Source: Acidobacteriota bacterium
Lineage (GTDB): Bacteria; Acidobacteriota; UBA6911; RPQK01; JAJDTT01
DNA length: 64,000 bases
Reading direction: 5' to 3'
Assembly: GCA_965263035.1 (NCBI GenBank)
Contig: OZ253580.1
Span: 2,272,001 to 2,336,000, forward strand
Of this stretch, positions 4,230 through 38,942 are shown one piece after another. The notes under the pieces were generated by a model, which was not told the DNA's origin, did no database searches, and saw nothing but the letters and a program-made list of their open reading frames with translations. Both the position numbers and the translations under genes were made by a program. Each line of letters starts with the position of its first letter. Position 1 is the first letter of the stretch.

Positions 4230-4231
4230 AA

Positions 4232-6177: not shown

Positions 6178-6298
6178 GATGGTCTACGTCTTCAGTAATT
6201 GTTCCCTGAGAAGGGGACAGTCACGTTCTCGCCCCGTTCAGGACACAAAGCGGAGCGGCAAAAGACGGGAGAAGGGGGACAGTCAGTTTCCGCCCCGG

Positions 6299-8299
6299 TC
6301 AGGACACGCCTGCGCCCAGCAGGAAGTTGATTTCGTCACTCAACTTCTGCGTCAGGTCCACGTCCGAATCGAACCCCACGTGGCGGTACTGAATCCGGCC
6401 TTCCCGCCCGATGAGCACGATCGTCGGTATCGCTGACACTCCGAATTCATCGTCGACCTTGCCGTCTCTGGCGACCGGAAAATCGTATTCGTTCTTCTTC
6501 ATGAACCTGCGGACCATGTCCGCATCCTCGTCCACGCTGACGGCGAGAAAAACGACTTCAGGCCGGTCCGACCACCGATCGACCGTCGCCTGGAACTGGG
6601 GAAGTTCCTCGACACACGGTCCGCACCACGTAGCCCAGAAATCGAGGACCACGACCTTTCCCTTGAGATCCGCCGATCTGACGCTTTCGCCACCCAGAGT
6701 CTTCAGATTGATTTCCGGTGCCTCGCCCGAGGAAAGCCCGCGCGCCCGCAGTATTGCCTCGTCCAGACTGAGCGCGGTTGGAGCGCCAACAGCCACGCTC
6801 CCTTCGGTCTTGGCCTGAGTCACGTGGTCCAGGACATACTGGTTCAGACCGTCAATCGAACCGTGCACCTTTGCGAACAGGGATTCCAGGGGTTTCCGCG
6901 CAGGATCGTGCAGATATTCAATCAGGGAACTCGCGTAGTGCTTCAGTGCCTCCTGGTGCTGCCCGGTGACTTCGTACGCGGCGGCAAGTTCAAGATGGAT
7001 CAGGTCCCCCGCTCGATCCCACACGCCTACCACGGGCAGAAGCACGGCGATTGCCTCCTGGTGTCTCCGATTCTTGTTGAGCACCTTGCCCAACTCGTAG
7101 GAAACCCCGGTTCGCACTTGTCCCCCCACTTCTTCCAACAGCTCACGGCTCGGCTCACTGCTGGTGAATAGAACGGTCCCGTGGACACTGTCCGGGTTCG
7201 CGAAATCGAGGGCTCGTTCAAGGAACCGGATGGCAAGCTCCGTCTGCCCCTCCTTCGCGTAGTGGACTGCGACTTGCGTGTATGCCATCGGATTCGGATA
7301 TCCCGATTCCAGGAGTTCCTGCACAAGTTCCTCTTCCTTCCGAGCCTCTCCAGACTTCCAATAGAGATTGAACAAGGCTTGGTAAGCATAATTCTTGAGC
7401 CTCTTGTCATCCGGGATTTCTTCTTTCTCCAGGCACTCCCGGGCGAGGGCTTCCGTCTTCTCCGGATCCGTTTCCACGTAGTGTTTCAAGAGGTAATCGT
7501 AGACGTGCACAATATTGGGACCCGTGGGGTAATCTTCGATGAAGCGATTCCAGAGCCGGACCTTCTGGTCCTGGTCCTCCAGGGATTCCGCCATCTCGTA
7601 CAGGGCAAGGCCCCCATTGCGGGGGTCGGATCTGAACCGCTCATAGATTTGCTGCAAGAGACTTGCGGCGTCGGTGTCCCGCTCAGCCTTCTCGTAGGCG
7701 CGCATGAGACCCCAATAACCGCGGGCGACGTCCGGCAACTCTGAGATCATCTTCCGGTAGGCGGCGATTTCGTTCTCCCGGCGGCCCATGCGACCGAAAG
7801 TTCGCGCCAGTCCCCGATGGCCCAGTTCACTCGTGGGCTCAAGGGCAAGGACCCTCTGGTAGTTGGTCAATGCCTGGTCGAAGGACCGGCGGTCTTCCAG
7901 CAACTCACCCAGACCCAGGTAGCCCCAGGGGGAGCCGGGATCCAACACGATCGCCTTCTCGTAATGGGCCTGCTTCGCGTCGCCCTCGGCGACTTCGCCG
8001 AGCAGGTAGTGGAAGACGGCACTGTCCGGATTCTCCTGGACGCGCCATTCGTACTCTTGGCGCAGCAGTTCCTTGTCTTCCGTGAGGCGGATGATCTCGC
8101 GGTGCGCTTCGGTGAACTCCGGGTCGTGTTCGACCGCTTGCCTGCAAAGCTCCAAAATTCGATCGGAATCGTCTCCACGATCGAGAGACATGGCCTCCAG
8201 ATAGAACCTCTGGGCCGTCTGCGGATCAGGAGTAGTAGTGCCGGTGCAGGATAAGCCGATGACAAGAAGTGGGCAGCAGAAAACCTGGATCAGCCTCAT
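6299..8299 (-). CDS. TPR-repeat lipoprotein with C-terminal TlpA/redoxin domain
   Basis: Lipobox GLSC, TPR-like helices and DFWATWCGPC. Confidence 0.85.
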   Translation of the reverse strand: MRLIQVFCCPLLVIGLSCTGTTTPDPQTAQRFYLEAMSLDRGDDSDRILELCRQAVEHDPEFTEAHREIIRLTEDKELLRQEYEWRVQENPDSAVFHYLLGEVAEGDAKQAHYEKAIVLDPGSPWGYLGLGELLEDRRSFDQALTNYQRVLALEPTSELGHRGLARTFGRMGRRENEIAAYRKMISELPDVARGYWGLMRAYEKAERDTDAASLLQQIYERFRSDPRNGGLALYEMAESLEDQDQKVRLWNRFIEDYPTGPNIVHVYDYLLKHYVETDPEKTEALARECLEKEEIPDDKRLKNYAYQALFNLYWKSGEARKEEELVQELLESGYPNPMAYTQVAVHYAKEGQTELAIRFLERALDFANPDSVHGTVLFTSSEPSRELLEEVGGQVRTGVSYELGKVLNKNRRHQEAIAVLLPVVGVWDRAGDLIHLELAAAYEVTGQHQEALKHYASSLIEYLHDPARKPLESLFAKVHGSIDGLNQYVLDHVTQAKTEGSVAVGAPTALSLDEAILRARGLSSGEAPEINLKTLGGESVRSADLKGKVVVLDFWATWCGPCVEELPQFQATVDRWSDRPEVVFLAVSVDEDADMVRRFMKKNEYDFPVARDGKVDDEFGVSAIPTIVLIGREGRIQYRHVGFDSDVDLTQKLSDEINFLLGAGVS

Positions 8300-8833
8300 G
8301 GTAGACCTCCGTAGCAGTCTGTAGCGCCGGTCCTGGGCAGGTGGGAACCGGTGTGAAAGCCAGTTGTGTCCAAGATAGCACCATGGACATCGGGGAGGTA
8401 CTGGCCGGAAAACGGCACGTCGTTTGTACGTGAAAATTCCGTTCTATTGGCACGTGTTCGATCCGGACAACGAGCTGGGATGGAGCTGTACCTGTCGCCC
8501 GCCGTGGAGCAGGCGGTGAGTGGACAGATCCACCAGGTTCAGGAGAGTGGCTCTCTTGACGCGTCCACAGTACTTCTCCTCGGTCTCGACGGTGAGAAGT
8601 TGCTTACCGTTGATCGTATTCCCTCTCCTCCATTGTGGTTCTCCTCTGGTACTCGACCTGATCGGTAGATTGCGCCACCCCTTTTTGATGTCGTAAAAGG
8701 GCATGGAGGTTCACTTTGGGGGCGAGGATCACCCGGATAGAGAAGGCAACTGGCCCCTTCTCCCCAACCTCTTGCAGATTCGCGTCAGATAAGGCTGCCA
8801 AACCGAGATAGGTTGGCGGTCACCACTTGCCGA

Positions 8834-9294
8834 TCACAGAATAGCGTTCAAGTCGTCAAGGAGTACCATCCGGTCATCCAGCTCCTGGACTTGATCGGCA
8901 AGACGCTTGGCCCTTGAAATCAGATCCTGTGCTGCCTGTCTCTCTCCCTGCAACGCCTTGGCGCGTGCGCTCGCCTCGTAGCCATAGCCGACATAGTAGG
9001 GAGGCAGATCGTTGGTCTCACCGACCTCGACACATCGCTGCGCGAAGTATTCCGCACGCTCCGGAAGTCCCGCAACGGCGTAGACACGAGCCAGCTGCCA
9101 GGTCCCAATTGCGATGTTCAATGGTGTGTGATCCTCAACCTGATTCCAATGCCAGAAGGAAGCATGGGACACACGTGAATCATCTCTTCAGCTTCGTTGG
9201 CGCTGAGCTCCGGCTTACGCAGGTACTCCCACGTCTTGTTGAAGCAGGAAGCGGCCAACCTGCGGTGAGTCAGATTGTCTGATTGATCGTTCAT
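8834..9294 (-). pseudogene. conserved hypothetical helical protein, frameshifted
   Basis: From ATG 9294, MNDQSDNLTHRRLAASCFNKTWEYL...EEMIHV joins SHASFWHW... only by a frame change at CACGTGTGTCCC (~9172). Confidence 0.65.
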
Positions 9295-9393
9295 GTCGTC
9301 TCCAATGCATGGGCTTGGAACGAGCGCCTGTGAAAAAAGGTGACAGACGAGCGGAGAACGTCGGGAGAACGTGACTATTCCCTTTTCGCTCGA

Positions 9394-11673
9394 TTAGACG
9401 AGACTCCGATAGCGATCCAATGCGCGTCTTGCCATGCCTGCTGCCAAATGTTTTGAGACCATCCTGAAGGCGTTGTCCAGTCCCCAAGCGTATCCGAGAT
9501 CGACGATCGCCTTTCCACAAGATTCAATGACCCTACGTTCGGGAATCTTAACTCTGTTTGCTAGCTCAACGAGTTCATGGATTCGCTTTCCGTCCGGAAT
9601 CACAACAGGTGCACAGCACTCGATCGCCCTCCCCATCATGAGGGTCGCCAGGCGCGCCGATTCGGCTGGAAGCTGCTCCCAGTGATTCCAAATAATTGGG
9701 GCACACTTCATCTGCTTGGCGTGGTCGAGCACCCGAAAGCACGCGACCGCATCCAGAATCCGCTCGCTCGGCAACACTCCCACGTAGACCGGACCGTGCA
9801 CAGTCTCAACACGGAAACCAAAATCGGTTGTGTTCCGGCCCGAGCAGCCGAGGACGACCGGCTGTCCGCCACTCAATGCGACAGGAATGGGCTTCAGTAC
9901 CTTCCCCTGCCTTGGGCGCTTGGGTTTTTTGGAGGACGGGATCTTGGACCAGTCGAGCGGCTCGCCGACCTTGGCCATATCGAGGTCTATCACGTAGATG
10001 CTTCCGGCCTTGCAACATTCGGACAGAGGCAGTGAGGTCGCAGAACCCGCTAGCCTAGCCGAAAGCTCAGTGCCGTCGGGAGAGAACGCGAAGGGGTGGG
10101 TCTTACGGCGCTTCACATCGCAATGGAGCGTGCAGAGACTGAAGAAGCGGTTCTCCACCGCTCGCAGCCGGAGAATCGACGACCACTTGATATCAGACAC
10201 GTTGTCGAAGCTCGGATTGACCCACAGGCGTGCGCCGCGTCTCGCGAGAGCCCTGGGAAAGAGCCCGAGATAGTGATCATGACAAATCGTTGCACCGGCC
10301 GTTGTGCCGCCCAGTTCAAAGGTCGGGAGCACAGAGTTCGGCTCCCAGTCCGGCCGCTCGAAAGCCACGGCATCGGCGGTGGAGTGTTTCGTATACACGC
10401 GGGAGCGGGAGCCGTCGGGATCGAAACGGAGAAGAACCTGCCAGGCGCGGTCAGTGGAGTCGACGGTTCTGTCGACAGCACCCACGAGAAGCGGTGCGCC
10501 CAGTTCTGCGGCCAGCTTGGTCAGTGATTCGGAGCGTTCCTGGTCGGACGCCGAGATGTAGCCTTCGGGAAATAGCGCGAAGTCGAGGTCCTCGCCGGAG
10601 AATGAATCGACTGCCGGTACGTCCGGCTGTTGGGCACCGGCACCGGTCGGCGGAACGCCGTTCGAGGCTCTTTGGGCGACTTGAGGAAACACCATCGCCA
10701 CGCTCAGGGTCGATTCCGGTCGTGTGGCAGGGGAGCGGATTCCCACCGGTGTCCGACGGAACCGAGAGCCCCCCTGATGGATCAGGTCCGAGAAGCGCTC
10801 CCGGTCTTCCCTGCTGTCCGGATCGAGCGAGCACCAGACCCGGTCGCGGGCGTAGAGCCGCACTGTTGGCCGCAAGTCCATGATCGACGGGACGAGATCC
10901 CGCAGTGTGTCGTACCAGGCCCGTTGTTCGTCGCGGAAGGGAGGATCGTTGTCCCTCGCATCGTGCTGTTCGCAGAGGTCCAGCCAGCGCCTCGCGGAGA
11001 ACCCCAAAGGGTGCGCGTCCGCGTAGACGGAAAGGGCGAGCCTCCGCGGGCTCGTGAAGTGCTGGCTCTCATCGAACTCGATGAGAAATCCAGGGTCGGG
11101 GACCCAGTAGTCGCAGCCTGCCAGCACGTCGCTTCGCACGAACGTGCCGATGCCGTATCCGCGATAGCTCTCAAGGACCCCGGCCACCTCCCGAAGCACC
11201 AAGTCGATCGAGGTTCCCTCGTAAGCTGCGAGCCCAGTCTTCCATCCGAATCTGTGGTCGGACACACACGCTCCGTAGATACACTCGAGAAGTTGCCCGA
11301 CCCGGATCTTGCAGGCGCGACACCGCTCGGAGTGGCGCCTAGAGGGAATCGTACCCGGCCCCCTCACCGATGGAGGGGATACAAGCGTGACGCAGACGTT
11401 GCGGATGCTACCGCCGCAGTCGCACTTGGTCACGGCGAAGCCGCGGCTCCGGAGAAACTCATTGGACTCCAGGCCTCCAGAGAATCGACCCGCGCTCAGC
11501 AACTCGCCCGTGGCGACCTGATGGGCCAGCGAAATCGTGTATTTCGGGGGCAAATGCTCGCCCTTCGTCGTCAAGCAGTAGCTTCGGCCCCTTCTTTGCC
11601 GTGGTACCCCGTCACGGATGATGAGCCGTATAGCTTCCTCGATGTGTGCCCTCGTGATGCGCCTTGGGATCAT
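9394..11673 (-). CDS. fusion protein: ScoMcrA-like N-terminal head + putative PD-(D/E)XK nuclease + carbon-nitrogen hydrolase (nitrilase) domain
   Basis: N-terminus ITRAHIEEAI..GVP..PPKY; middle CDYWVP..IEFDESQHF; C-terminal FPEG / YTKH / ICHD (E-K-C triad). Confidence 0.7.
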   Translation of the reverse strand: MIPRRITRAHIEEAIRLIIRDGVPRQRRGRSYCLTTKGEHLPPKYTISLAHQVATGELLSAGRFSGGLESNEFLRSRGFAVTKCDCGGSIRNVCVTLVSPPSVRGPGTIPSRRHSERCRACKIRVGQLLECIYGACVSDHRFGWKTGLAAYEGTSIDLVLREVAGVLESYRGYGIGTFVRSDVLAGCDYWVPDPGFLIEFDESQHFTSPRRLALSVYADAHPLGFSARRWLDLCEQHDARDNDPPFRDEQRAWYDTLRDLVPSIMDLRPTVRLYARDRVWCSLDPDSREDRERFSDLIHQGGSRFRRTPVGIRSPATRPESTLSVAMVFPQVAQRASNGVPPTGAGAQQPDVPAVDSFSGEDLDFALFPEGYISASDQERSESLTKLAAELGAPLLVGAVDRTVDSTDRAWQVLLRFDPDGSRSRVYTKHSTADAVAFERPDWEPNSVLPTFELGGTTAGATICHDHYLGLFPRALARRGARLWVNPSFDNVSDIKWSSILRLRAVENRFFSLCTLHCDVKRRKTHPFAFSPDGTELSARLAGSATSLPLSECCKAGSIYVIDLDMAKVGEPLDWSKIPSSKKPKRPRQGKVLKPIPVALSGGQPVVLGCSGRNTTDFGFRVETVHGPVYVGVLPSERILDAVACFRVLDHAKQMKCAPIIWNHWEQLPAESARLATLMMGRAIECCAPVVIPDGKRIHELVELANRVKIPERRVIESCGKAIVDLGYAWGLDNAFRMVSKHLAAGMARRALDRYRSLV

Positions 11674-11777
11674 TGCCTTCTTCAGTCACATTGGAGATTC
11701 AGATCAGTCGCTCGCATCAAGTACGAACCGGTTGAAAAATACTCTCGCGAGTAAGAAATGGTGACTGTCCCCATTTC

Positions 11778-11960: not shown

Positions 11961-12183
11961 AGCGTGCTCCTTGGTTTGGTACGCGACGACATGGTAGTCC
12001 GCCGTGGCCAACTCGGCCAGTTTGGGCAATCCAACTTGTCACCCCGACGTTAAACGCGTAAATCGGACTTTTCACCGTTTTCCCGGGGGAGGCCCACGCA
12101 GCCATGTACCGGACGCTGTAGATTGAGGACACGAGAACGTGACTGTCCCGTTTTCGGTCCCCTTTTCGCGCGCGCTTCGTCCT

Positions 12184-12237: not shown

Positions 12238-12571
12238 GGCGACCAATGGCATCAAAGTGAACATGACCCCTTCCCATCCGGGCGACTTCATCCGTACGGA
12301 GGCCATTGAGGAATTGGGTCTGACCGTGACGAAGGCGGCGCAGACCCTGGAAGTTCGCCGGGCAACGCTTTCGGACCTGCTGAACGGCAAGGCCGCGCTC
12401 TCGCCGGAGATGGCGCTACGCATCGAAAAGGCCTTTGACGTGAGCATGGATATGCTGCTGCGGATGCAGGCCTGGTACGACGCCTCGCAGATGCGTGCGC
12501 GCGCAGGCGAGATCACCGTCCAGCGCTACGTGAGATTAGAGAAGGTGACTGTCCCCCTTCTCCTGCAGTGA
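12236..12571 (+). CDS. higA: HigA family antitoxin
   Basis: HPGDFI...LSDLLNGKAALSPEMALRIEKAF; the C-terminus (EKVTVP) is encoded by the 12539 site. Confidence 0.9.
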   Translation: MATNGIKVNMTPSHPGDFIRTEAIEELGLTVTKAAQTLEVRRATLSDLLNGKAALSPEMALRIEKAFDVSMDMLLRMQAWYDASQMRARAGEITVQRYVRLEKVTVPLLLQ

Positions 12572-12690
12572 AGATCGTGAATCTGACGCCACGTCATTTG
12601 CTGGGTGAAACAGTCATGCATCGTTGGATCTTTCCCACGTTCATTATCTCGATCCGGTCACGGCAGCCAGGGGTGGCAGGTCGCGTTTGG

Positions 12691-12730
12691 GAATAAGCCG
12701 GAATAAGCCGGAATAAGCCGGAATAAGCCA
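12691..12730. repeat. 10-bp tandem repeat GAATAAGCCG x4
   Basis: Seen directly; the last unit is GAATAAGCCA. Confidence 0.9.
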
Positions 12731-12740
12731 ACCCACAGTT

Positions 12741-14138
12741 TTACAAGCGTTTCCAGCGCGCTCCCCGACCATGGCCCGTAGGTGTGATCAAACCTCGAGC
12801 CTTTAGAGTGGCGAGGTCTTCACGCAGTCGCCGCTTGTTGATTTGCGGTCCCAACTCGGCGAGGATCTCGCGCAGTGCCATGGCGCGATCCGCCTGATCG
12901 ATTAGCGCAAGGATCTCCCGTTGCCGCTCGGTCAAAAGGGTCACCTTGACAGGATCCATTTCGGAGAGGGAAGCGGGTCGGAACCGGACCGTCACGCACC
13001 CTCCGGCATCCTCGATCTCGGGGAGTGGCAGACCGGCAGAGGTCGCCAGCTCCGCCATCTTGAGAGTCCCGCGTCCCCACTCCTCAATGATGCCTCGCCG
13101 ATAGAACGTACGGGCGATCAGTGGGTTCCACGGCAAGGATTCGTGCGGTGCGAACAGCTTTTCCGGGGTCAACCCGAAATGCAAGGTGCCGGACGACGTC
13201 ACCTCCAGACGGTCATCGTAGACCGCCACTCCCACGGAGCCGCCACCGATGGAGTAATCACGATGACACAAGGCATTCGCCAGCGACTCTCGAGTCGCCA
13301 GGGGAGGATAGAGGGGTTCGTCAATCCGTTCGAAGCGACCCGATTCGAACCGTCCGGAGATGGGCAGGGTCTCACGAAGAAAACGTTCCGCATTCGCGAG
13401 AAGCGTGAAGGCGTTGCCGTGGAACTGCCTGTTGTCCAGGAACTCCGTCCGGTCAAGCCCCCGAAAACGCGCGACACGGAGCAGACATTGCGGCATCTCA
13501 AACTCGATCCGTTGGGCTTTGCCGAAGAGCACCACCGCCGCGCGCCACAAGATCCCGTCTCGAAAAAGTCCCAGCCCCCGCAACATTTCAATGGGATCTT
13601 GCGTCCCCGGGTCCTCCAATCGGCCCCGCCTGACCGCCTCCGAAACCGTGCGGCGGATCTCTGCTACGTCCAGATCATCGATCGACCAACCGGTCGCTGG
13701 CTGGTTCTCCCATCGTCGCTCGCTGTGCATGCGCTCAAAGAGCATGCGGTTGTACTCATCGGCCGACAAGGCCAAGGTGGTGTTCCCAACCCGACGATAC
13801 GCTATGCCTCGGTAAACGTACGGCCTTGAAGACCCGCGGCTTACGCGCACCACGACCACCTCACGGTCCCCCTCTATGGGAACCCGCTCGATCTCTGGAA
13901 AGGACGGCGGATCGATCCTTTGGATCTCGCCGCTCACGCCCTCAATAGTCCGGTCGCTCACTTGCTGTCCAACCACGTCTCCATTGAGTGTGACACCGAA
14001 CAGCACATACCCACCGCGTTGGTTGAGCATGGCGCATACGGTTCGGGCTGCCTCACGACGCTCCCCCGTCGTGCTCTTGAACTCCAGAGTCTGTGACTCG
14101 TGGGTGGAGACCAGCGCCGCAAGTCGCTCAGACATCAT
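12741..14138 (-). CDS. AlbA_2/Schlafen domain + HATPase_c_4 + C-terminal HTH protein
   Basis: ESQTLEFK, AMLNQRGGYVLFGV, NALCHRDY and WNPLIA...GRG motifs. Confidence 0.85.
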   Translation of the reverse strand: MMSERLAALVSTHESQTLEFKSTTGERREAARTVCAMLNQRGGYVLFGVTLNGDVVGQQVSDRTIEGVSGEIQRIDPPSFPEIERVPIEGDREVVVVRVSRGSSRPYVYRGIAYRRVGNTTLALSADEYNRMLFERMHSERRWENQPATGWSIDDLDVAEIRRTVSEAVRRGRLEDPGTQDPIEMLRGLGLFRDGILWRAAVVLFGKAQRIEFEMPQCLLRVARFRGLDRTEFLDNRQFHGNAFTLLANAERFLRETLPISGRFESGRFERIDEPLYPPLATRESLANALCHRDYSIGGGSVGVAVYDDRLEVTSSGTLHFGLTPEKLFAPHESLPWNPLIARTFYRRGIIEEWGRGTLKMAELATSAGLPLPEIEDAGGCVTVRFRPASLSEMDPVKVTLLTERQREILALIDQADRAMALREILAELGPQINKRRLREDLATLKARGLITPTGHGRGARWKRL

Positions 14139-14579
14139 CGGGCCGCCTCGACCACTCGCATGGGGTTATGGCGTATATCCACAAAATAGCTCTCATCTAC
14201 AACAATGTGTTCAGTGCGTCGAAGACCTTTTTGGAAGCGATCGAGTTCCTGCTCATTCCCTGATACGCACGTGAGTTTCATATACCCAAGTCTGCACCGA
14301 CGATGTGTCAGCCGGGTAAATCCGTCTCGGGGCGCTCGAAGGCGCCAACTCCGAGCACAGGAAGCAGCGACAGCATTTCGGCCAGATAGCCGTCCATCAC
14401 AGCTCGATCCGGGTCCGCCAACCTGGGGCGTTGCGGTTTTCTGAATCACCAATGGCCGCGGATCGGTCATGTCCCCCGCCAAGGATGCGCGCCGGAAGAT
14501 CCTCCGCCATCCGGTCAACCGCGACGATTCCTACCAGGAGCACTGCAGCACTCAAGAGATCCCGACTCGGCTTCCCACC

Positions 14580-14768
14580 CTATGACAAATTATTTTCCTT
14601 GCGTCGGCTCGCCAAACGCCGCAGAACCGGGTCCGTATATCGGTGCGCATGAAGCCAGTGATCAAGCTCGTCACGGGTCTTCCCCACGATCTCCGCGCTG
14701 ACGCGATCCCGAATCTCCCGCATGGTCTTTACGCCATCGAATCCCCTCTTTTTCATTTTCTCAATCAT
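14580..14768 (-). CDS. small hypothetical protein (putative antitoxin partner of a PIN toxin)
   Basis: MIEKMKKRGFDGVKTMREIRDRVS..., directly downstream of a PIN remnant. Confidence 0.55.
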   Translation of the reverse strand: MIEKMKKRGFDGVKTMREIRDRVSAEIVGKTRDELDHWLHAHRYTDPVLRRLASRRKENNLS

Positions 14769-14860: not shown

Positions 14861-14880
14861 AGCAAAGCGAGAATTGCGGT

Positions 14881-30300: not shown

Positions 30301-30352
30301 CGGCGACAAGAAAGTCGCCGCTCCCAGCCGGCGACAAGAAAGCCGCCGCTCC
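30301..30352. repeat. REP-like hairpin pair
   Basis: CGGCGACAAGAAAGTCGCCGCTCC twice, the second slightly variant. Confidence 0.85.
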
Positions 30353-30441
30353 CGCGCGATGCCGCCCAGGCCGAGTTCCTTGAGGAACCCACGGCGGTCC
30401 CGGCCCACCGGTCGAGTTCCATCGGCTCCGTCAGTGAACAT
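30353..30441 (-). pseudogene. DUF1501 5' stub (copy 3) truncated at a REP
   Basis: MFTDGADGTRPVGRDRRGFLKELGLGGIA followed by REP sequence. Confidence 0.8.
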
Positions 30442-32632
30442 AGATGAACTCGTTCAGGCTCATGACGGCATGGCAGTACTGTACCAGCGGGCTTTGAGCA
30501 TCCAAGGACCCCGGCTCGTTGCTTTCCTCCAACGCGCCGGCGCGCCGTTGACCGAGAAACGACAGGCCGATCTCGCGTTCTTCCACGGTCGGTGGCCGGG
30601 AAAGAGCAATCCGGTAGGCCGACTCGATCTGTCGGCCGGGGTCGCCTCCGACTCTGTCCCGCACCCGTTCGGCGAAGCGCGTCGCCTGCTCCCACACGAA
30701 TGGCGCATTCAGCATGAACGCCGTGCTGCCCGGTGTCGTGCTGATGTGACGAAGGCCGACGCTTTGCGTGTTGTCCGGAAGGTCGAAGATCTTGAGGACC
30801 GGATGGAGGTTGAAGCGCGGCGACATGAGGTAGACGGACCGGCGCCAGGTGTCCGGCGTGTCCTTGAAAGGTTTCTTGCGGCTGCCAATGGGAGTGCTGG
30901 GCCCGTACATGTCCGGGCGCAGAGCGCCGGAGACGCTCAACATGTGGTCGCGGATGACTTCCGCCTCCATGCGCAAGGGCCTGCGGTGCCACAGGTACTC
31001 GTTGTAAGCATCGTGCCGGGCCTGAGCCAACTTCGTGCTGGCCGCCTGTTTGTACACGGAGCTGTTCATGATCAGCCGGTGGATCGGTTTCAATCGCCAG
31101 CCCTCCTGGACGAGCTGGGAAGCGAGCCAATCCAGCAGAGCGGGGTGGGTGGGCTCGGTTCCGAGTCTGCCGAAATCATTCGGGGTGCTGACGATGCCGC
31201 GCCCGAAATGATGTTGCCAGAGACGATTGACGATCACCCGAGCCAGCAACGCGCCGGCGCCATGCTCGACGTCGGTCATCCAGTTCGCAAGCATCCGAAG
31301 CTTCGATGCCTCGAGCTCCTCCTCGGGGCCATCGGCGGCTTCGGAACGGGGCCGCCAATCCTTCGCGCTGCGACCGTCCCGCATCATGACGCGCAGGAAA
31401 CCGGGTTCGACCGGCTTGACGGGCCGCTGCCAACTGCCCCCGGCCAGCAGATGGGGTGTGGTCACCTCCAGGGGGACGTGCTTGCCGCCTGCGTCCGGCT
31501 TGACCTCGGCTTCGTCGAAGAATACGGCCGTCAACTGGTAATACTCTTCGGCCGTGATCGGGTCGATCTTGTGGTCGTGGCAACGCGCACACCCGACCGT
31601 GAGGGCAAGGAACGCCTGACCGGTCGCCGACACCATGTCGTCGAGGCGGTGAAACTTGCGATCGTTCGGGTTGTCGCTCCCGCTCAGGTTCGTCCCAATG
31701 TGAACGAACATGCCCAGATCCCGCCGGCCGGCGGGGAAACCTTTCGGAGCGCCGGCAACCTGGTCGCGGACGAACTCGTCGTAAGGCAGATCGTCATTGA
31801 AAGCGCGAATCACGGCGTCGCGGTATCGATACGCGTCCTCTCGAAGTGCGTTGTCCCCCTCGTGTGCTCCAAGGCTCTCGCCAAACCGAGCCACATCCAA
31901 CCAGTGCCGTCCCCACCGTTCGCCGTAGTGCGGGCTGGCGAGCAGCCGGTCAACGAGCTGGCGAAAGGGTTCCGCAGAAGAATCTCGAACGAACGCCTCG
32001 ACTTCGTCGGGCGCAGGCGGCAGACCGATCAGGTCGAAGTAGGCGCGGCGAATCAGCGTGGGACGATCGGCCTCCTGTGCCGGACGAAACTGCTTCTCGT
32101 GCAGCGTGGCGAGGACGAAACGATCAATGGGCGAGTCCCGCCACGCGGCCTCATCCGGACCTGCCGCGGACACCTGAGGCGGATCGACAGGACGCAGCGG
32201 GCGGAAGGCCCAGTGGCGGCGTCCTGATTCGAGATCCATCTTCGCCGTGTCAATGGCCTTCGCATCTCTCGGATCGGGCGCGCCGAGGGCCACCCATTTG
32301 ACGAAGTCAGCGATGACCTGGTCGGGCAGTTTGCCGCCCGGCGGCATCTGCAGGTTGGGGTCGGTGTAGTTGAGAGCGTCGATCAGCATCGACTGATCGG
32401 GTCGCCCCGGCACGACGACGGAGCCCCGCGCCCCGCCCCGCTCGACACCCTCCCGCGTGTCCAGCTGCAGCTTCCCCATCAGCATTCCCGTGCCGGCGGC
32501 CTCTGCCGAGTGACACTGATAGCAGCGCTCCGCCAGCACCGGACGGATCTTCTTCTCGAAGAAGTCGATACGGTTTTGACCGGGTTCCTCGGGGGCTCCG
32601 AGCAGACTGAGGGCGATTACGAATAGGATCAC
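30431..32632 (-). CDS. Planctomycete cytochrome c + DUF1549/DUF1553 protein
   Basis: CYQCH, YGERWGRHWLD, CARCHDHK and VNRLWQHHFGRG motifs. Confidence 0.92.
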   Translation of the reverse strand: MILFVIALSLLGAPEEPGQNRIDFFEKKIRPVLAERCYQCHSAEAAGTGMLMGKLQLDTREGVERGGARGSVVVPGRPDQSMLIDALNYTDPNLQMPPGGKLPDQVIADFVKWVALGAPDPRDAKAIDTAKMDLESGRRHWAFRPLRPVDPPQVSAAGPDEAAWRDSPIDRFVLATLHEKQFRPAQEADRPTLIRRAYFDLIGLPPAPDEVEAFVRDSSAEPFRQLVDRLLASPHYGERWGRHWLDVARFGESLGAHEGDNALREDAYRYRDAVIRAFNDDLPYDEFVRDQVAGAPKGFPAGRRDLGMFVHIGTNLSGSDNPNDRKFHRLDDMVSATGQAFLALTVGCARCHDHKIDPITAEEYYQLTAVFFDEAEVKPDAGGKHVPLEVTTPHLLAGGSWQRPVKPVEPGFLRVMMRDGRSAKDWRPRSEAADGPEEELEASKLRMLANWMTDVEHGAGALLARVIVNRLWQHHFGRGIVSTPNDFGRLGTEPTHPALLDWLASQLVQEGWRLKPIHRLIMNSSVYKQAASTKLAQARHDAYNEYLWHRRPLRMEAEVIRDHMLSVSGALRPDMYGPSTPIGSRKKPFKDTPDTWRRSVYLMSPRFNLHPVLKIFDLPDNTQSVGLRHISTTPGSTAFMLNAPFVWEQATRFAERVRDRVGGDPGRQIESAYRIALSRPPTVEEREIGLSFLGQRRAGALEESNEPGSLDAQSPLVQYCHAVMSLNEFIYVH

Positions 32633-32716
32633 GCGACTACCTTGGGCTTGTACTCGAAATCCTATTCGGATTGTAGAAGGAAATCCACCGAGCGAACGGA
32701 CGTGTGCCTTGGTCCC

Positions 32717-33589
32717 TCAGTAGGTCCCAATCCCCAGCACATCCTTCTCCCAGGGTGTCAGTCGTTTGATCTGTTCGGGAGAAAGAGCGCGAACCTCCGT
32801 GTACTCGGGGATGGTCTCCTCGAGACCCAGCAGCTTTCGCATTTCCGGGAGGAGACGATCTTGCACGCTCTGCGGGATGACGCGGGCGTTGTCGATCATC
32901 CCTTTGACCCACCAGCGATGAAAAAAGGCCAAGATGGAATGCCGGTCGTGGTTGCTACGGTTGATGCCGCTGGCGTGCCAAAGCGCCGCATCCCAGACGA
33001 TGGCCGTACCCGCGGGAACAGTCGCTTGGTGGGATCCCGGGTAGTCCGCATCCGGGTCGGGGATCCGGCAAGATTTGTGAGTGCCGGGCCAAACCAGCGT
33101 AGCGCCGTTTTCGGCTTTGAAATCCACAACCGCCCAGGCGACATTGATTGCCATCGGGTAGTGCCTGCCGTCCTCGAAGGGCACGATGCTGAACGGAGAC
33201 CGGTCGGCGTGAATCTGAAACCCGCGCCCGGGTTCCCTGCCCTCGCTGGGTCGAATCGAACGCGCCGTCGTATCGTACAGAACCATATCCTCACCCAAGT
33301 AGTCACGGCACACGGAGAGGACCGCCGGGTTCAGGTAGAACGTTTCGAAGCAAGGGTGCTTGCCCACGATACAGTGGGCGGACCAGCAGTGCTCAGACGA
33401 AGTTCCCAGCCGCAGAGCGATTTCGCTCTCCCGTTGGTAGATATCTTCGGCCGCCTGAATGGCTGGAGCAAAATACTCGGCGTCGAGAGCGTCCGGGATG
33501 ATCGTGTAACCGTGCTCCTCAAGTTCTCCAACGTGGAACTCTCGTTCCGACGGCGTTAGTTCTCTACCGCTCGAGAAGCTGCTCTTCAT
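32717..33589 (-). CDS. phytanoyl-CoA dioxygenase family protein
   Basis: HAD, NGATLVWPGTH and WHASG motifs. Confidence 0.88.
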   Translation of the reverse strand: MKSSFSSGRELTPSEREFHVGELEEHGYTIIPDALDAEYFAPAIQAAEDIYQRESEIALRLGTSSEHCWSAHCIVGKHPCFETFYLNPAVLSVCRDYLGEDMVLYDTTARSIRPSEGREPGRGFQIHADRSPFSIVPFEDGRHYPMAINVAWAVVDFKAENGATLVWPGTHKSCRIPDPDADYPGSHQATVPAGTAIVWDAALWHASGINRSNHDRHSILAFFHRWWVKGMIDNARVIPQSVQDRLLPEMRKLLGLEETIPEYTEVRALSPEQIKRLTPWEKDVLGIGTY

Positions 33590-33777
33590 AAATCATGCCC
33601 CACAAACCGTTCTGGAAATGCCACTGCTTGGCAGCGTCTGCGTTAGTTAACCAGCCTACTACACGATTTCCTTCTCGAAAACACGCAGAGATGGTGACTG
33701 TCCCCTTCTCGCGCGCGCGGGTGACCCGCCAGATCCGCGCTCACGTCCGGTGACGTCCGCCAGCGCCGGCGGCCGCT

Positions 33778-34653
33778 TTATGGACCGGCCCGCCGCGATC
33801 GCGGGAGTGCCAGCGCCACGCCGCCAAGAATCAGCACGGAGGAGAGCACGAGCCGAAACGTGACGGACTCTCCCATGATGAGCACGCCGCCCGCCGCGGC
33901 GATCACGGGTACGGACAGCTGCACTGTGGCCGCGAAGGTCGCGGTGAGGCCGCCCAGCACCGTGTACCAGATCGCATAGCCGGCCCCCGACGCCAGCGCG
34001 CCGGAGGTGACGGCGAGCAGCGCGCCGGCAGGCGTGATCTCGAAGTCTCCCACGCTCAGCAGGCTGACTACCGCGACCATCGGCACGCTGCGAACGAAGT
34101 TATCGCGGGTTTCTCCCAGCGGGTCCGTAGCACCGCGGCCGTGAAGCGAGTACAGCCCCCAGGCGATCCCGGCCACCGCCATGAGCACGCTGCCCGTGGG
34201 AGACGGCGCCGTCACGCCCGGCAGCACCAGGTACGTCATGCCGCCGAGTGCGGAGGCCAAGCCGATCCACTGCAGCAGACGAGGGCGCTCACCGGAGACC
34301 AGGCCCGCGACGAGCATCGTGGCCTGCACCGCGGCAAAGAGGATCAGCGCGCCCGTGCCGGTCGTGAGCGTGTTGTACGCGAAGGAGAACGGGACCGCGT
34401 AAAGGAACAGGAGCGCCGCGGAGAACCAGCCCGCCCTGCGCGGCGTGCGCGCTCCCCGCCGCACGGCGTTGATGGCCGCGAGGGCCAGCGCCCCCGACAG
34501 CAGACGAATCGCGGAGAAGCTGGCCGCGTCGATCTCCCCGCCCCCGAGCGCCGCGCGGCACAGGACCGAGTTGGCGGCGAAGGCGACCATCGCCGCCGTC
34601 GTCAGGAGGCTGACGTACCTGACCCGCGCCACGGCGTCAGACGTGGCCACCAT
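33778..34653 (-). CDS. DMT/EamA family transporter
   Basis: AFAANSVLCR and about 10 TM segments. Confidence 0.88.
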   Translation of the reverse strand: MVATSDAVARVRYVSLLTTAAMVAFAANSVLCRAALGGGEIDAASFSAIRLLSGALALAAINAVRRGARTPRRAGWFSAALLFLYAVPFSFAYNTLTTGTGALILFAAVQATMLVAGLVSGERPRLLQWIGLASALGGMTYLVLPGVTAPSPTGSVLMAVAGIAWGLYSLHGRGATDPLGETRDNFVRSVPMVAVVSLLSVGDFEITPAGALLAVTSGALASGAGYAIWYTVLGGLTATFAATVQLSVPVIAAAGGVLIMGESVTFRLVLSSVLILGGVALALPRSRRAGP

Positions 34654-35126
34654 CGATCCACGTGCAGTAAATAGGTTTCGTATGATCCTCCGAATCTTTG
34701 ACGAAGTGTCGGCTCCTCATAGAACAGCACATTCAGGTGGAACGCCACCAGCATCACCCCTGCGTACGCGAACAGGCGGGCCTGGCCGAAGAGCAACGCC
34801 TGCCCTGAAATGATGATCAGCACGGAGACGTACATTGGGTTTCGCACGAACCGATAGAGGCCGGACGCCACCAGCACTTCGGTCTGCGCCACCGGTGCCG
34901 GTGTGCCACGCCCCTCAAGAACGAAGCGGGCGAAGCAGTCCAGCAGGCAGGCCAGGCCCGCCGCGACCGCCGCGACACCCACTACCCGCTCGCCCGGTAG
35001 CCCGAGCAGAGGTGGCTGCATCGTCCAACCGACCAGTGCGAACGGGCCGACGCCGGCAACGACAGCGGGAGCGACCCAGAAGAAGACGAACGACCCCACG
35101 ATCGCACGCGTACGTGTGCCCTTCAC
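34602..35126 (-). CDS. isoprenylcysteine carboxylmethyltransferase / PEMT family protein
   Basis: GRGTPAP, GLYRFVRNPMY and EEPTL..FG..Y motifs. Confidence 0.85.
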   Translation of the reverse strand: MKGTRTRAIVGSFVFFWVAPAVVAGVGPFALVGWTMQPPLLGLPGERVVGVAAVAAGLACLLDCFARFVLEGRGTPAPVAQTEVLVASGLYRFVRNPMYVSVLIIISGQALLFGQARLFAYAGVMLVAFHLNVLFYEEPTLRQRFGGSYETYLLHVDRWWPRLTPWRGSGTSAS

Positions 35127-35431
35127 AAACCCGTCATGAAACCCTGGGAGTCTGGCAGGTGATGTCCAGGCGGCTTCGCGCCTGTTGTCGTGCGCCGCCT
35201 GTGAGACTTCGCATGCAGTCTCGTCCCCCGTTCAGCATACCGGCACTCGCGCCAATTCTTAATTCTTTATAGCTTGATGGTAGTGCTATCAAGGAGAAGC
35301 CGTTCCCTCGGAGGAAGGGAATGAGGTGGTGACTGTCCCCATTTCGTCCGCGGTCCGTTCTCAGATCTCCCACCGCCATCTCATTTGACCCGCAATCTCG
35401 AAGAGTGTATGGCTATTCATTGGCTTCAGAT

Positions 35432-36415
35432 ATGAGACACATCGTTGTTCTGCTGGTTTCTGCCCTGGCTTTTTTCGGTATCGGGACGGCTTGGTGCGAG
35501 GGGGCCGGGTCCGGGAAGCCTGATCCGGACGGCATCGGGCGCTTCTTCCTGGTCTCGTCGGAAGGGCTCTACATCGTCGAATCCGATGGCCGCTGTTCCT
35601 GGTCATTCACCGTCCCTCCACTCGACGGACAATCTCCCGGCGAGTTCGACGACCTGATCTACGACGGCTGGGCTCTCACCAACGGAAATATTCTCTACGG
35701 GACGCATCGCTATGTGCGAGAAATAAATCGCCAAAAGCAGACGGTGTGGGAGTACCGTGTCGAAGGAAAGAACAAGGTCAAGACCTGCCTGCCCTTGCCC
35801 AACGGCCGGGTAGCGGTGCTCAACAGCCAGGAGCAGGCCATTCTTGAATTGGAATCGGGGACCGGACAGGTCCTGCACCGGATCCCCGTTCCCGCTGAAG
35901 GAACACTCCATACCCGCTACAACCTCTTGCGTCGAACTCCGGAGGGAAACTACCTGGTCGCGCTGCGTGCCGAGGAGAGATTCGTGGAAGTGGATTCCGC
36001 CGGCAGGATCCTCCGCTCCCTGCCGGTCCCGAGTCTGCCTGCCCTGGCCCTGACGCTGAGCGACGGCACCACCCTCTGCAGCGGCCGCTTCGGCCTGATC
36101 AGGTTTGATGCGAACGAAAAAGTGACGTGGAGCTTCACCCCTGAGGATGCGGCGCCCCACTTCCCACTGTTGATCGCAGTCGGGATAGTGGAGCTGTCCG
36201 ACGGCCGATTGCTGGTGGTGAACTCCGACTGGCATTACCAGAAACCGGGTGAGAATCGTGTGCAGCTCTTCATCACGGATTCCTCGAAGGACGTTTCGTG
36301 GACTCTTCCGGTGACCGCCTTCGACGGCTGGAAGCGGGGAGAGATCGAGCCCAAGACGGGTCTGCTTGAACATCGAGCCGGGGTGGTCCAGCTGCTGGGC
36401 CCTGACATTCCCTGA
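35432..36415 (+). CDS. secreted beta-propeller-like hypothetical protein
   Basis: Signal peptide; repeated LxNGN/LxDG..W motifs. Confidence 0.65.
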   Translation: MRHIVVLLVSALAFFGIGTAWCEGAGSGKPDPDGIGRFFLVSSEGLYIVESDGRCSWSFTVPPLDGQSPGEFDDLIYDGWALTNGNILYGTHRYVREINRQKQTVWEYRVEGKNKVKTCLPLPNGRVAVLNSQEQAILELESGTGQVLHRIPVPAEGTLHTRYNLLRRTPEGNYLVALRAEERFVEVDSAGRILRSLPVPSLPALALTLSDGTTLCSGRFGLIRFDANEKVTWSFTPEDAAPHFPLLIAVGIVELSDGRLLVVNSDWHYQKPGENRVQLFITDSSKDVSWTLPVTAFDGWKRGEIEPKTGLLEHRAGVVQLLGPDIP

Positions 36416-36537
36416 CCGTATTCACGGGTCTTCGTACCCTGGAACCGACCTCGCGAGAACGGGACTGTCCCCTTTTCGACTGTCCGGATGTAGAGACCTG
36501 CGACTTGTGACTTCTCGTTGAAGTTCAGCTCACTGGA

Positions 36538-37659
36538 TTACCGCGGCTGCAGCTTCACCCGCCAGAGCTCGAGACACTCACCCGACTGGTAGAGAATCAC
36601 GTTGGGCTCGACTTCGAAGATTGTCGGATAGGCCATTCTCCGGGAATAGTCGGCTACCGTGGTGGCAAGCCAGCCCTTTCCGGTGCCATCAGCATTGATT
36701 GCCAGTTGGCATTTCCTTCTCTGATCTTCTTGGCTCCAGTCCGTATTTTTCTCCCCGTGGCGCTGTACCAACTGGCCATAGGCTAGCGCCAAGCGCCCAT
36801 CCTTCAGCCTCAGCAGATAGGGGTCGACCCCAGGGCCCAGGCCCATGTCGGCGGGTGGGCTCCAGGTTCTTCCGCCGTCGCCGCTCCAGCTCGCCACCAT
36901 GGGCGAGTAGTGGCCGGTCCGCATCACGGCCAGCATCCGGCCATCGTCCAGCGGAAGCAACGCCCACTCATTGAATCCCTCCGTATCATCCTCCACCCCG
37001 GCACGCGGAGCGGCTACGGTGGAAAAGTATCGCCAGGTGTCTCCCTGATCGTCGGAGCGCATCAGGAAAGACCTCATCTTGGAGGGAGTCTCCATCTTGC
37101 TTCGAGGGTCGGTTGTCGGCATGTTGTCCTGCTCGAAGCTACCAATCATGCAGGCCAGCAGGGTCCCATCCGGCATCTCTCGAATGCCCCGATGGAAGAA
37201 GATGGCCGAGCTCTTCTGGCCCTTGACTTCCGAGAAGTCATCGTCGGGAACGGATCCTGCCTCCGGCATGATGAGGACCGTTTCCTTCTTCTCTACTGTC
37301 TTCATCCCGTCGCGGGAACGCCACATTCTCCCCACGCAGCGACCCGCCTCCCGACAGGTCACGTTCCAATAGAAGCCTAGGAACAGTCCCTTTCTCCAGA
37401 ACAAGGAGGTCAGCTTCTCGGCGAACAGGTACGAGCCAAACGGGGGATCGGACTCATCCACCGGCCAAAAATACCTGCCCCCATCGTTACTCTTGAGCGC
37501 CCCGTAGACATAGATGGTTCCATCCGGAGCCTGGACCGCCCTGGGATGACGACATCTGGCTGCCGTCACCTGCACATCCAACTCTGCCGCTGCCTGAATC
37601 ATGACCGGGGTCATGGTGATGAATGCCAGCAAATGGAATCCTCTCCGAACCTGCAGCAT
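36538..37659 (-). CDS. sialidase / BNR (Asp-box) repeat protein
   Basis: SNDGG, SDDQGDTW and SGDGGRTW Asp-boxes; signal peptide. Confidence 0.8.
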   Translation of the reverse strand: MLQVRRGFHLLAFITMTPVMIQAAAELDVQVTAARCRHPRAVQAPDGTIYVYGALKSNDGGRYFWPVDESDPPFGSYLFAEKLTSLFWRKGLFLGFYWNVTCREAGRCVGRMWRSRDGMKTVEKKETVLIMPEAGSVPDDDFSEVKGQKSSAIFFHRGIREMPDGTLLACMIGSFEQDNMPTTDPRSKMETPSKMRSFLMRSDDQGDTWRYFSTVAAPRAGVEDDTEGFNEWALLPLDDGRMLAVMRTGHYSPMVASWSGDGGRTWSPPADMGLGPGVDPYLLRLKDGRLALAYGQLVQRHGEKNTDWSQEDQRRKCQLAINADGTGKGWLATTVADYSRRMAYPTIFEVEPNVILYQSGECLELWRVKLQPR

Positions 37660-37902
37660 TTCATTTACCTCCTAATCCAGGTTGGGAAGGCGAAGTTTGC
37701 GTCGGCGGCTGTCACAGGCGCATGACTCTGCCGGAAGGTCGAGAGAAGGTGACTGTCCCCTTCTCATCTATACGAGAGCAACTCCTGGAGATCCTCGGCC
37801 GTCAGTCTCTCGGCGGAAGCGACCGTCTCGCGCACCTCAGAGAGCCGTGTTTCTCGACCGCCGGATAGTGCCTTGAGGACCGGTAACATCAACATTTGAA
37901 AG

Positions 37903-38241
37903 TCAGGAACGGGCATCGGTCGTACTCCCTGCTATCGACCCAATCGTTTGCCGGGGCTGGACACGCTCAACAATCCGGCGGCCAGACTCGATTTCTTCCC
38001 GCCGCAGTTCCCAAGTCTTCTGCAGGTTCATCCAGACCTGCGGAGTCGTCCCAAAGTAGCGCGCCAGGCGCAATGCCGTGTTGGCGGTCACACCCCGCTG
38101 TCCATTCAGGATCGCTGTGATTCGATTCACGGGCACGTCCAGCGCTTTCGACAGCGCATTGGCCGACATGCCAAGCGCGTCTAGTTCGTCCCGCAAGATC
38201 TCTCCCGGATGCACCGGTCGCATCCTATTCTTGAAACTCAT
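37903..38241 (-). CDS. higA: HigA antitoxin
   Basis: MSFKNRMRPVHPGEIL..NRITAILNGQRGVTANTALRLARYFGT. Confidence 0.9.
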   Translation of the reverse strand: MSFKNRMRPVHPGEILRDELDALGMSANALSKALDVPVNRITAILNGQRGVTANTALRLARYFGTTPQVWMNLQKTWELRREEIESGRRIVERVQPRQTIGSIAGSTTDARS

Positions 38242-38254
38242 CGCCTCGATCTCC

Positions 38255-38345
38255 TCAGTGATAATCCACGATCTCGACTTCGTAGGGCCCATCAACGCCC
38301 AGCATATTAACGACCACGACCGGAGGATGCTGTACAACGGCTGCC
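38255..38345 (-). pseudogene. HigB toxin remnant
   Basis: YSI... and DGPYEVEIVDYH* in a disrupted frame upstream of higA. Confidence 0.65.
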
Positions 38346-38942
38346 GCCCCATGGCGGTGGTGGTGAAAGGCTTGAGCAACGATGCGGAGAAAATCGGTCT
38401 AACCGAGCATCGCCTCTGGCTTGCAGCGGTGATGCACCTGCGGCCGGTCGGCCTCGACACGGATCTTTATGACCGAGACAAGACAGACGGGTCAATTCCA
38501 TACGTGAGCGCCCATGTCTTTGGTCCTGGATTCAACGTATCAGTGGAGTACTCGGGGCAGTGCCATGCAACCGCAAGGGGGAAATGTGGCGGGATTACAG
38601 AGTAGGGCATATGCTCCCCGGAGCAGCAGCTGGAACGCTTCGCTGCGGCGCCGCCCAAGTCGTCCTCGCGCCGCTGAACTCCCTCATCTTTAGGTTTCGG
38701 GAGGAGTCCCTGCGAGTGAAGGAAGAAGATTGCCGCCGCCGCTGAGCCAAGAGAAGGCGAGGATCGGGAAAGAGATGGTGACTGTCCCCTTCTGAAGACT
38801 CCGGTCCTTCTCGACTCAAAATAAAAATGTCCGAAAGGAGAGCAAGAGTTGAGAGTATGACCGCCCCAGAGAAAGGGAAGGACGTGAGGGACGCTCGTCG
38901 CTCCGGGGACCTTCCCGGAGAGACGAGTTGTGCTTGGAAGGA

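Follow-up and report, generated by a model that had tools for sequence, protein, structure and literature searches.

Accessory gene modules bounded by a repeated 24-bp site in a genus of Acidobacteriota: a putative module-exchange platform distinct from integrons

Integrons are the textbook route by which single genes are collected and shuffled, and searches for them rely on the integrase IntI and its attC sites. IntI is a tyrosine recombinase with an additional domain specific to it. An attC site is an imperfect palindrome of 57–141 bp, conserved in structure, with complementary R''/R' core boxes, and is recognised as a folded single strand; most cassettes of an integron point the same way, each ORF being upstream of its attC. 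In composite staphylococcal cassette chromosome (SCC) islands at rlmH, and in cis-mobilisable elements (CIMEs) beside integrative and conjugative elements, units that lack a recombinase are bounded by direct repeats of a short core and use the recombinase of another element; such an array holds 2–5 units, each several kb long, with a repeat that comes from the target gene. Repetitive extragenic palindromic (REP) elements and bacterial interspersed mosaic elements (BIMEs), with their REP-associated tyrosine transposases (RAYTs), are short intergenic imperfect palindromes that are scattered genome-wide and do not bound exchangeable modules. The ends of IS200/IS605 insertion sequences (IS) are subterminal hairpins, recognised as single-stranded DNA by Y1 transposase. 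Clusters of attC sites without an integron integrase (CALINs) have also been described (Cury et al., 2016, PMC4889954), and a study of Acinetobacter plasmids reports pdif modules moved by XerC/XerD (PMC13141974). Here we describe an array of accessory gene modules, separated by a repeated 24-bp sequence that we call the junction site, in a stretch of 64,000 nucleotides from an Acidobacteriota bacterium (contig OZ253580.1, positions 2,272,001 to 2,336,000; hereafter the window, meaning the whole stretch analysed). The genome holding the window (G000) is a single contig of 6.198 Mb.

A weight matrix built from 67 genome copies of the junction site gives as consensus a conserved A, then GAGAAGGTGAC-T-GTCCCCTTCTC, with information in 24 columns only and none in the flanks. 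Twelve window positions match this motif at three mismatches or fewer, compared with none in 100 shuffles. At 6 bits or more the matrix finds exactly 20 sites in the window, 19 on the plus strand (8740 to 38772) and one on the minus strand (6208); there are none in 1–6207 or 38795–64000, and none in the reversed-sequence control. The original prediction, made from the letters of the window, had counted 20 copies in one orientation and two inverted copies at the left edge. The direct array is borne out, with a matrix count of 19, and so is the inverted copy at 6208, but the second inverted copy (near 6268) is only degenerate and below the threshold. That prediction had also seen no site among the 25 kb of core genes to the right of the transfer-messenger RNA (tmRNA) gene ssrA, and the matrix scan agrees, with zero.

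The comparison that bears most directly on the role of the site covers six arrays, that of G000 and those of five congeneric genomes (G001, G002, G004, G005 and G007). In all five, the region of 40–82 kb that holds the array is enclosed by conserved genes on one side and by a conserved ssrA, together with the genes to its right, on the other. The syntenic arrays have 18–26 sites each, nearly all oriented as in the window, and the inverted left-edge site is present in four of the six (G000, G001, G002 and G007). Blast segments common with the window begin and end at sites; their order varies, some are duplicated and some occur in one other genome only, and the modules at 19634–22790 and 37766–38771 are in none of the five. 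All 15 genome pairs taken together, the arrays contain 1004 homology endpoints, and 326 of these are no more than 25 bp from the centre of a site; rotating the site positions (1000 trials) yields 24.6 on average and 68 at most. After near-identical endpoints are collapsed, 134 of 458 are near sites. Gapped comparison of the 150-bp flanks in 7716 site pairs found the left flank alone in common in 75, the right alone in 48 and both in 17, and the neighbourhoods of related sites are rarely kept. In 15 configurations, not all independent, two segments meet at one site in one genome (X-S-Y) and are parted by a site-bounded insert of 217–2947 bp in another (X-S-insert-S-Y). The original prediction had proposed, as a check, to look among relatives for segments gained, lost or reordered at the sites. 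All three are seen in the congeneric genomes, and the comparisons support a reading of the array as a gene-module exchange platform distinct from integrons. Movement between non-syntenic arrays was also considered and was not borne out, as only low-identity paralogues were found.

The array and its sites are listed here with window coordinates, strand and matrix score; X1 and X2 belong to three public runs (X1, X2 and X3) available as short contigs only.

6208..38794, plus: whole array, 20 junction sites bounding 19 modules, between a conserved sulfatase gene (4351–6177) and the ssrA 3' end
6208..6230, minus: inverted site at the left edge of the array, 39.8 bits
about 6268..6290, minus: degenerate inverted copy with a 1-bp insertion, recognised by eye
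8740..8762, plus: site, 31.7 bits
9365..9387, plus: site, 23.6 bits, 7 bp from the stop of a nitrilase-like gene
11755..11777, plus: site, 30.9 bits, followed by an additional right-arm copy
12133..12155, plus: site, 32.4 bits, followed by an additional right-arm copy
12539..12561, plus: site, 24.9 bits, overlapping the stop of the HTH_3 gene 12236–12571
16166..16188, plus: weakest site of the array, 14.7 bits
18557..18579, plus: site, 27.1 bits, with the 70 bp to its right replaced in X1 and X2
19385..19407, plus: site, 27.0 bits
19611..19633, plus: site, 30.8 bits
22791..22813, plus: site, 32.0 bits, a near-perfect palindrome with both arms of right-arm type
25300..25322, plus: site, 27.8 bits
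26666..26688, plus: site, 24.7 bits
28228..28250, plus: site, 41.4 bits; the G007 counterpart is two sites and an 817-bp insert
28581..28603, plus: site, 36.7 bits
33688..33710, plus: site, 40.2 bits, with small deletions from its last base in X1 and X2
35323..35345, plus: site, 23.8 bits; the G002 counterpart is two sites and a 1086-bp insert
36455..36477, plus: site, 32.5 bits; the G004 and G001 counterparts are two sites and inserts of 794–2947 bp
37743..37765, plus: site, exact consensus, 44.3 bits
38772..38794, plus: last site, 36.0 bits, 148 bp from the ssrA 3' end

The window holds only part of the sites in this genome. G000 has 113 sites of at least 14 bits, compared with 2 and 0 in two control scans. 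Neighbour gaps are below 6 kb in 73 of 112 cases (random mean 11.6, maximum 22, in 2000 trials), and 65 of these 73 close pairs share one orientation. Twelve clusters of three or more contain 80 of the 113 sites, with a further 7 pairs and 19 singletons; the window array is the largest cluster, and others have 13, 10, 8 and 6 sites. The original prediction of clustering, as opposed to scatter among core genes, fits this distribution. Its placement of the array next to the tmRNA gene is correct here but is not general, as only 3 of the 12 clusters have a tRNA or tmRNA gene nearby. A link to replication direction was rejected: the GC skew places the origin (skew minimum) near 2.85 Mb and the terminus near 5.8 Mb, and arrays of either orientation occur on both replichores.

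At two mismatches or fewer, the motif is found in all 8 other genomes of the genus (10–62 matches each), in none of 6 genomes of the sister genus and in 1 of 26 further genomes of the order (one match), with all reversed-pattern controls for this survey at zero. Exact matches in a species-representative collection come from Acidobacteriota metagenome-assembled genome records only (17 stretches, 5 assemblies); viral contigs gave none and JGI metagenomes one, and a master element was not found there. The ssrA loci of three sister-genus genomes (G009, G011 and G012, 40 kb each) have no comparable repeat family. In G007, the second, small contig (C1, 144 kb) carries sites at 25708, 66086, 66130, 66825 and 126722 and, should this contig be a plasmid, could carry modules from one genome to another. 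Short tandem series of sites occur in G002 (232925–236153), G004 (3278868–3278990) and G000 (5550167–5550306), with periods of about 697 bp, 50 bp and 48–69 bp, which suggests local duplication of site-bearing units.

Restriction to a single genus is also what REP families show, and the junction site might be a passive repeat: an intergenic element specific to the genus, protein-binding or REP-like, that is carried along with accessory genes and acts as a hot spot for host events, with no dedicated recombinase. Its 23-bp identity or its palindrome would then promote short-homology recombination, replication slippage or palindrome breakage. Such an element would need no linked enzyme, and none is linked; imprecise right junctions, arm duplications and tandem site repeats at 48–69 bp spacing suit it as well, and other palindromes of REP type, with RAYT-like genes, are present in the genome. 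These real REP families are, however, scattered through G000, core genes included (165 blast matches for the block at 40105–40400), whereas the junction site is confined to accessory arrays and is absent from the 25 kb of core genes. Neither the uniform orientation nor the kept asymmetry of the site (T8 and the central T) is expected of a passive palindrome, and the clean pairs of X-S-Y and X-S-M-S-Y also speak against it. We rate a passive repeat as unlikely, although it is, with transposon-like modules, one of the two main rivals.

The anatomy of the site is that of an asymmetric sequence. Conservation is highest in the centre (positions 8–16), lower in the right arm and lowest in the left arm, and two asymmetries are kept: a T at position 8, where symmetry would want G, so that positions 8/16 form a T/C mismatch, and the central T. 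Among 150 distinct copies, hairpin covariation is lacking (65.4% of cells paired, compared with 66.7% in shuffles, and fewer double changes than in the shuffles), and because of this the site is read as a duplex sequence, apparently with 7-bp arms GAGAAGG/CCTTCTC around a 9-bp asymmetric centre. Two inverted binding arms and an asymmetric overlap of 6–9 bp are the general layout of tyrosine-recombinase core sites, which the proposed anatomy fits. Recombination partners among pdif sites need near-identical spacers, as reported for that system (PMC13141974), and a most-conserved centre is what a need for identical overlap regions predicts.

Many sites lie 7–70 bp after stop codons and some between convergent genes, as transcription terminators or RNA-stabilising hairpins of horizontally acquired genes would. 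The original prediction had pointed to minus-strand genes that stop near a site, and such stops do lie 7, 37, 29, 9 and 21 bp from the sites at 9365, 16166, 25300, 26666 and 28228. An intrinsic terminator needs a stable G+C-rich hairpin with a T-run behind it at a gene 3' end, whereas single-strand folds are weak here (−0.7 to −7.6 kcal/mol, z-scores −1.4 to +1.5), no T-run follows the site, compensatory changes are lacking and the core genes to the right of ssrA are free of sites. By crude gene calls, the 95 sites of at least 20 bits divide into 36 between tandem genes, 20 between convergent and 15 between divergent genes, and 24 inside calls of open reading frames (ORFs); read in site orientation, the flanking gene ends of the 71 intergenic sites are, by the same crude calls, 3'/3' in 20, 3'/5' in 20, 5'/3' in 16 and 5'/5' in 15. 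The orientation of a site is unrelated to the adjacent gene end, and genes have no fixed polarity towards it. A terminator function for the sites is very improbable.

A true but degenerate integron or CALIN with shrunken attC sites is equally improbable. The array layout, the accessory cargo with its toxin–antitoxin (TA) pairs and the lack of a nearby integrase would suit it, as in CALINs (PMC4889954). The conserved part is nevertheless only 24 bp long, flanks carry no information, pairing is not under selection and genes occur in both orientations relative to the site. No complementary R''/R' box pairs 40–150 bp apart were found in 6208–38794, and none of the 20 sites has both boxes within 30 bp. 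In the whole genome of G000 there is neither IntI nor an IntI-like pseudogene; the best TIGR02249 score is 78.7 bits, compared with a cut-off of 265, and the best matches are two Xer-like genes far from any array. An integron was rejected on these grounds, and the original prediction was right that the sites are not attC and that IntI is missing.

In our estimate there is about an even chance that the array belongs to a separate kind of module-exchange system, which is site-specific and served by a recombinase acting in trans. The 24-bp sequence would be a double-stranded recombination site, with two inverted arms of 7–8 bp and an asymmetric, near-invariant centre, at which accessory modules of 0.2–5 kb would be inserted, deleted and reordered. 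Exchange would proceed by conservative site-specific recombination, in which a circular module with one site integrates into a resident site and is excised again between direct repeats; integration of circles necessarily produces direct repeats. A simple recombinase would catalyse these steps, the tyrosine type being the most plausible, with its gene at another place in the genome or on a visiting element; that location away from the arrays would make them an analogue of integrase-less cassette clusters. A bolder and more tentative proposal is that they represent an undescribed class of chromosomal gene capture, with many arrays per genome, small promoter-bearing modules, a 24-bp duplex core site and a non-IntI, non-XerCD recombinase encoded elsewhere. 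Such an enzyme might come from a family for which no role in cassette exchange has yet been described.

Several findings, on the junctions and on the enzyme, weigh against exchange by a trans-acting recombinase. By a count of the listed pairs, left-flank homology comes within 3 bp of the site in both members of about 40 of the 75 left-only pairs, but right-flank homology starts 0–95 bp from the site, often at differing distances in the two members. A forward right-arm copy follows within 45 bp of 28 of 218 sites, compared with 8 upstream. In runs X1 and X2, 6 letters stand in place of the 70 bp that follow 18579, a change that begins exactly at the right end of the site, and at 33710 a deletion starting at the last base of the site removes 6 bp in X1 and 4 bp in X2. 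Truncated genes adjoin sites: an integrase without its last codons at 5548266 and an integrase fragment at 1954619 (G000 coordinates), a TnpB fragment that ends 13 bp from the site at 2397612, and a gene remnant at 18580–18690 of the window. The right-hand junctions are less tidy than textbook conservative recombination would leave. Crossover mapping by shared variants was uninformative at about 12% divergence, and its two clearest examples favour different arms. Neither excised circles nor strain-level excision was seen in the short contigs of the public runs, where array parts without cover in X2 and X3 do not count as absence. Three contig joints (18579>28226, 28251>33686 and 21418>28225) were rejected as evidence of excision, since with sides of only 21–26 letters they reflect the repeat itself. 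Given the asymmetric junctions, the indels at the right end and the truncated genes, the right end of the site, or a position close to it, is the probable place of the crossover, a feature also of attC sites.

Truncated genes at sites are also what adjacent deletions leave, and left homology that abuts the site with variable right junctions could arise if the modules were transposon-like, that is, non-autonomous elements inserted beside an existing end by a trans-acting transposase (DDE, or HUH in a rolling-circle or one-ended reaction). The half-sites would be 11-bp terminal inverted repeats abutting across one base, or the whole site would be a fixed right end; modules do start with a right arm and end with a left arm, which are mutual inverted repeats, and many transposases are encoded. 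Independent insertions would not, however, hold one orientation over 19 junctions unless targeting were strictly oriented. No module-encoded transposase uses these ends (the module-10 IS and the TnpB element have their own), target-site duplications were not recognised, and there is no sign of the hairpin selection that IS200/IS605 ends would need. Transposon-like modules seem improbable to us.

The trans-acting recombinase of the favoured account has no clear candidate in the genome, and no recombinase is consistently linked to the sites. G000 has 27 PF00589 matches, of which only two are within 100 bp of a site, both from one 334-aa Xer-like family: the copy at 5547290 adjoins a site and a fragment adjoins the site at 1954556. 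Its paralogues are gene-only units, with homology from about 70 bp upstream, at an AT-rich palindrome that we take to resemble a dif core, to the stop codon, and they have no site. Elsewhere, a site accompanies the family in 0 of 12 loci of other genomes (flanks of about 3 kb), a full-length copy was not found with the G000 query in G005, G004 or G008, and the family is present in two genera without the motif. It was rejected as the dedicated enzyme for its site-free paralogues, the 0 of 12 loci and its presence in motif-free genera. Relatives of the tyrosine, serine and Y1 domains of G000 were not found inside or beside the syntenic arrays of G000, G002, G005 and G007, and in G002, where 10 of 11 listed PF00589 matches exceed the Pfam cut-off, none of these 10 comes closer than about 28 kb to any listed site. 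In G001 and G004, an ordinary integrase occupies a site-free 15-kb island that adjoins ssrA. The link to a large serine recombinase is unconvincing: its 2.6-kb unit is little more than the recombinase gene, and of the four copies one is 1.1 kb and another 9 kb from a cluster, and the remaining two are elsewhere. The two families are placed as follows (G000 coordinates).

5547290–5548258 (L001 6290–7258), 2087369–2088337, 5656001–5656966 and 3683196–3684164: copies of the 334-aa Xer-like tyrosine recombinase, 84–92% identity
4252022–4254626, 5181142–5183746, 1029482–1032080 and 5830939–5832870: four copies of the 2.6-kb unit with a large serine recombinase (about 700 aa), 92–99.7% identity

Other enzymes were rejected too. 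The RAYT gene of a REP system is flanked by the repeats of that system. The RAYT-like Y1 gene at 2482813–2483487 overlaps only a 17-bit look-alike of the site, in a region flanked by another, genome-wide palindrome family. An HUH/Y1 enzyme, one of two guesses in the original prediction, is accordingly not supported, given the lack of compensatory pairing, the weak folds and the different REP family around the Y1 gene; the other, a tyrosine recombinase, is still a guess, as none consistently adjoins the arrays. The IS of module 10 and the TnpB element were rejected as movers, with ends unlike the junction site. Xer/dif recombination was rejected as well: G000 has a single canonical dif-like site (5875243–5875270) near the GC-skew terminus, the motif is unlike it, and close neighbours are mostly direct repeats. 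G+C-rich palindrome blocks (a stem, a 5–6-nt loop and a CTCC-like tail) occur in the window at 4225–4350 and 40105–40400, with 28 and 165 blast matches in G000 respectively and many more across the genus. They are also found among core genes and beside both RAYT-like Y1 genes, and look like a classical REP/RAYT system separate from the junction site.

The 19 modules are 203–5084 bp long, with a G+C content of 0.475–0.675. Pfam matches (HigB/HTH, CN_hydrolase, AlbA_2, ECF, PhoD, APH, DUF1501, BNR and EamA) confirm the gene contents given in the original prediction. The annotated modules and the right-hand border are listed by window position.

6231..8739, minus: module 1, TPR and thioredoxin-like protein (6299–8299), between inverted sites; in all five compared genomes, twice in G001 and G005
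9388..11754, minus: module 3, 759-aa protein with a CN_hydrolase domain; only in G005, at another array position, with homology from site to site
12562..16165, minus: module 6, AlbA_2/HATPase_c_4, DUF3738 and AhpC/TSA-like genes
16189..18556, minus: module 7, ECF sigma factor (17921–18421) and a 560-aa protein without a Pfam match
18580..19384, plus: module 8, HigB toxin/HTH_3 antitoxin pair and the gene remnant 18580–18690
19634..22790, no strand assigned: module 10, only in G000, carrying a 1.77-kb IS
20005–21778: IS with a DDE_Tnp_1_4 transposase, in module 10; about 17 copies in the genome at 93–100% identity
22814..25299, plus: module 11, PhoD-like gene and a 253-aa gene; 98% identical in G007, missing from the other four arrays
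25323..26665, minus: module 12, APH-family kinase, G+C 0.475
26689..28227, minus: module 13, DUF1501, a 92% identical paralogue of 28740–30221
28251..28580, minus: module 14, 97-aa HTH_3 protein
28604..33687, minus: module 15, DUF1501, PSCyt1/PSCyt2/PSD1 and PhyH genes
33711..35322, minus: module 16, EamA transporter and PEMT/ICMT methyltransferase, G+C 0.675
35346..36454, plus: module 17, beta-propeller-like protein (Mala_s_1-like)
36478..37742, minus: module 18, BNR_2 sialidase-like protein
38943..39298, minus: tmRNA gene (ssrA), its 3' end forms the right-hand border of the conserved synteny

The IS at 20005–21778 is missing from one X1 contig, which joins 20005 to 21775, and its insertion is therefore polymorphic. 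The 203-bp module has no ORF, and its sequence at 19413–19602 is 77–79% identical to window 1445–1634 and to the corresponding left-flank position in G004, G005 and G007, which suggests that a piece of the conserved left flank was copied into the array. Further left, 857–1120 (minus strand) matches Rfam group II intron domains D1–D4 (RF02001, 81.4 bits; RF01998, 47.2 bits), and this intron probably runs past the left end of the window. The cargo of other clusters includes P450s, GNAT, radical SAM, GmrSD, AAA_21, a helicase, a histidine kinase, a decarboxylase, a TonB receptor and multihaem cytochromes, along with stray IS110, TnpB and DDE elements that have ends of their own. Amid this diverse cargo, in the window and the other clusters examined, there is no enzyme for a module's own movement.

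Literature searches, which did not cover supplementary files, found no description of the junction site or of such arrays in Acidobacteriota. The array behaves like an integron in comparative genomics without IntI or attC. If this is confirmed, modular gene capture would be more widespread and mechanistically more varied than current tools see, and the 24-bp site with its six syntenic arrays would provide a starting set for the enzyme hunt. For uncultured host-associated Acidobacteriota, it would explain the turnover between species of TA pairs, sulfatase-type DUF1501/PSCyt genes, sialidase-like proteins and transporters.

Set against the described systems, the junction site shares with REP/BIME elements the form of a genus-specific, short imperfect palindrome in intergenic space, often just after stop codons. 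It differs from them in that the RAYT-like genes here are beside other palindrome families, hairpin selection is lacking and 80 of 113 copies are clustered. As with SCC islands and CIMEs, the window array occupies a variable region behind ssrA, a classic integration spot; unlike them, there are up to 26 junctions and units down to 0.2 kb, and the majority of clusters have no tRNA or tmRNA gene beside them. A duplicated ssrA 3' end was rejected as the origin of the repeat, as the site is unrelated to that sequence. The pdif modules (PMC13141974) are similar in that short sites (less than 30 bp, two arms and a spacer) flank accessory modules that encode no recombinase themselves and are shuffled by one supplied in trans, and their need for near-identical spacers matches the near-invariant centre here. 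The pdif sites are 11-6-11 XerC/XerD sites that resemble chromosomal dif and alternate between neighbours (C and D modules), whereas the sites here are direct repeats, chromosomal and found in one genus only. Sedentary chromosomal integrons and CALINs likewise consist of many small accessory modules, TA pairs included, split by one repeated site in one orientation; their module content differs between related genomes, and in CALINs no integrase adjoins the array. In contrast to integrons, the arrays described here have a 24-bp conserved site that is apparently read as duplex, no IntI in the genome, genes without fixed polarity towards the site, no evident attI or cassette promoter (Pc), and 12 clusters per genome instead of one platform.

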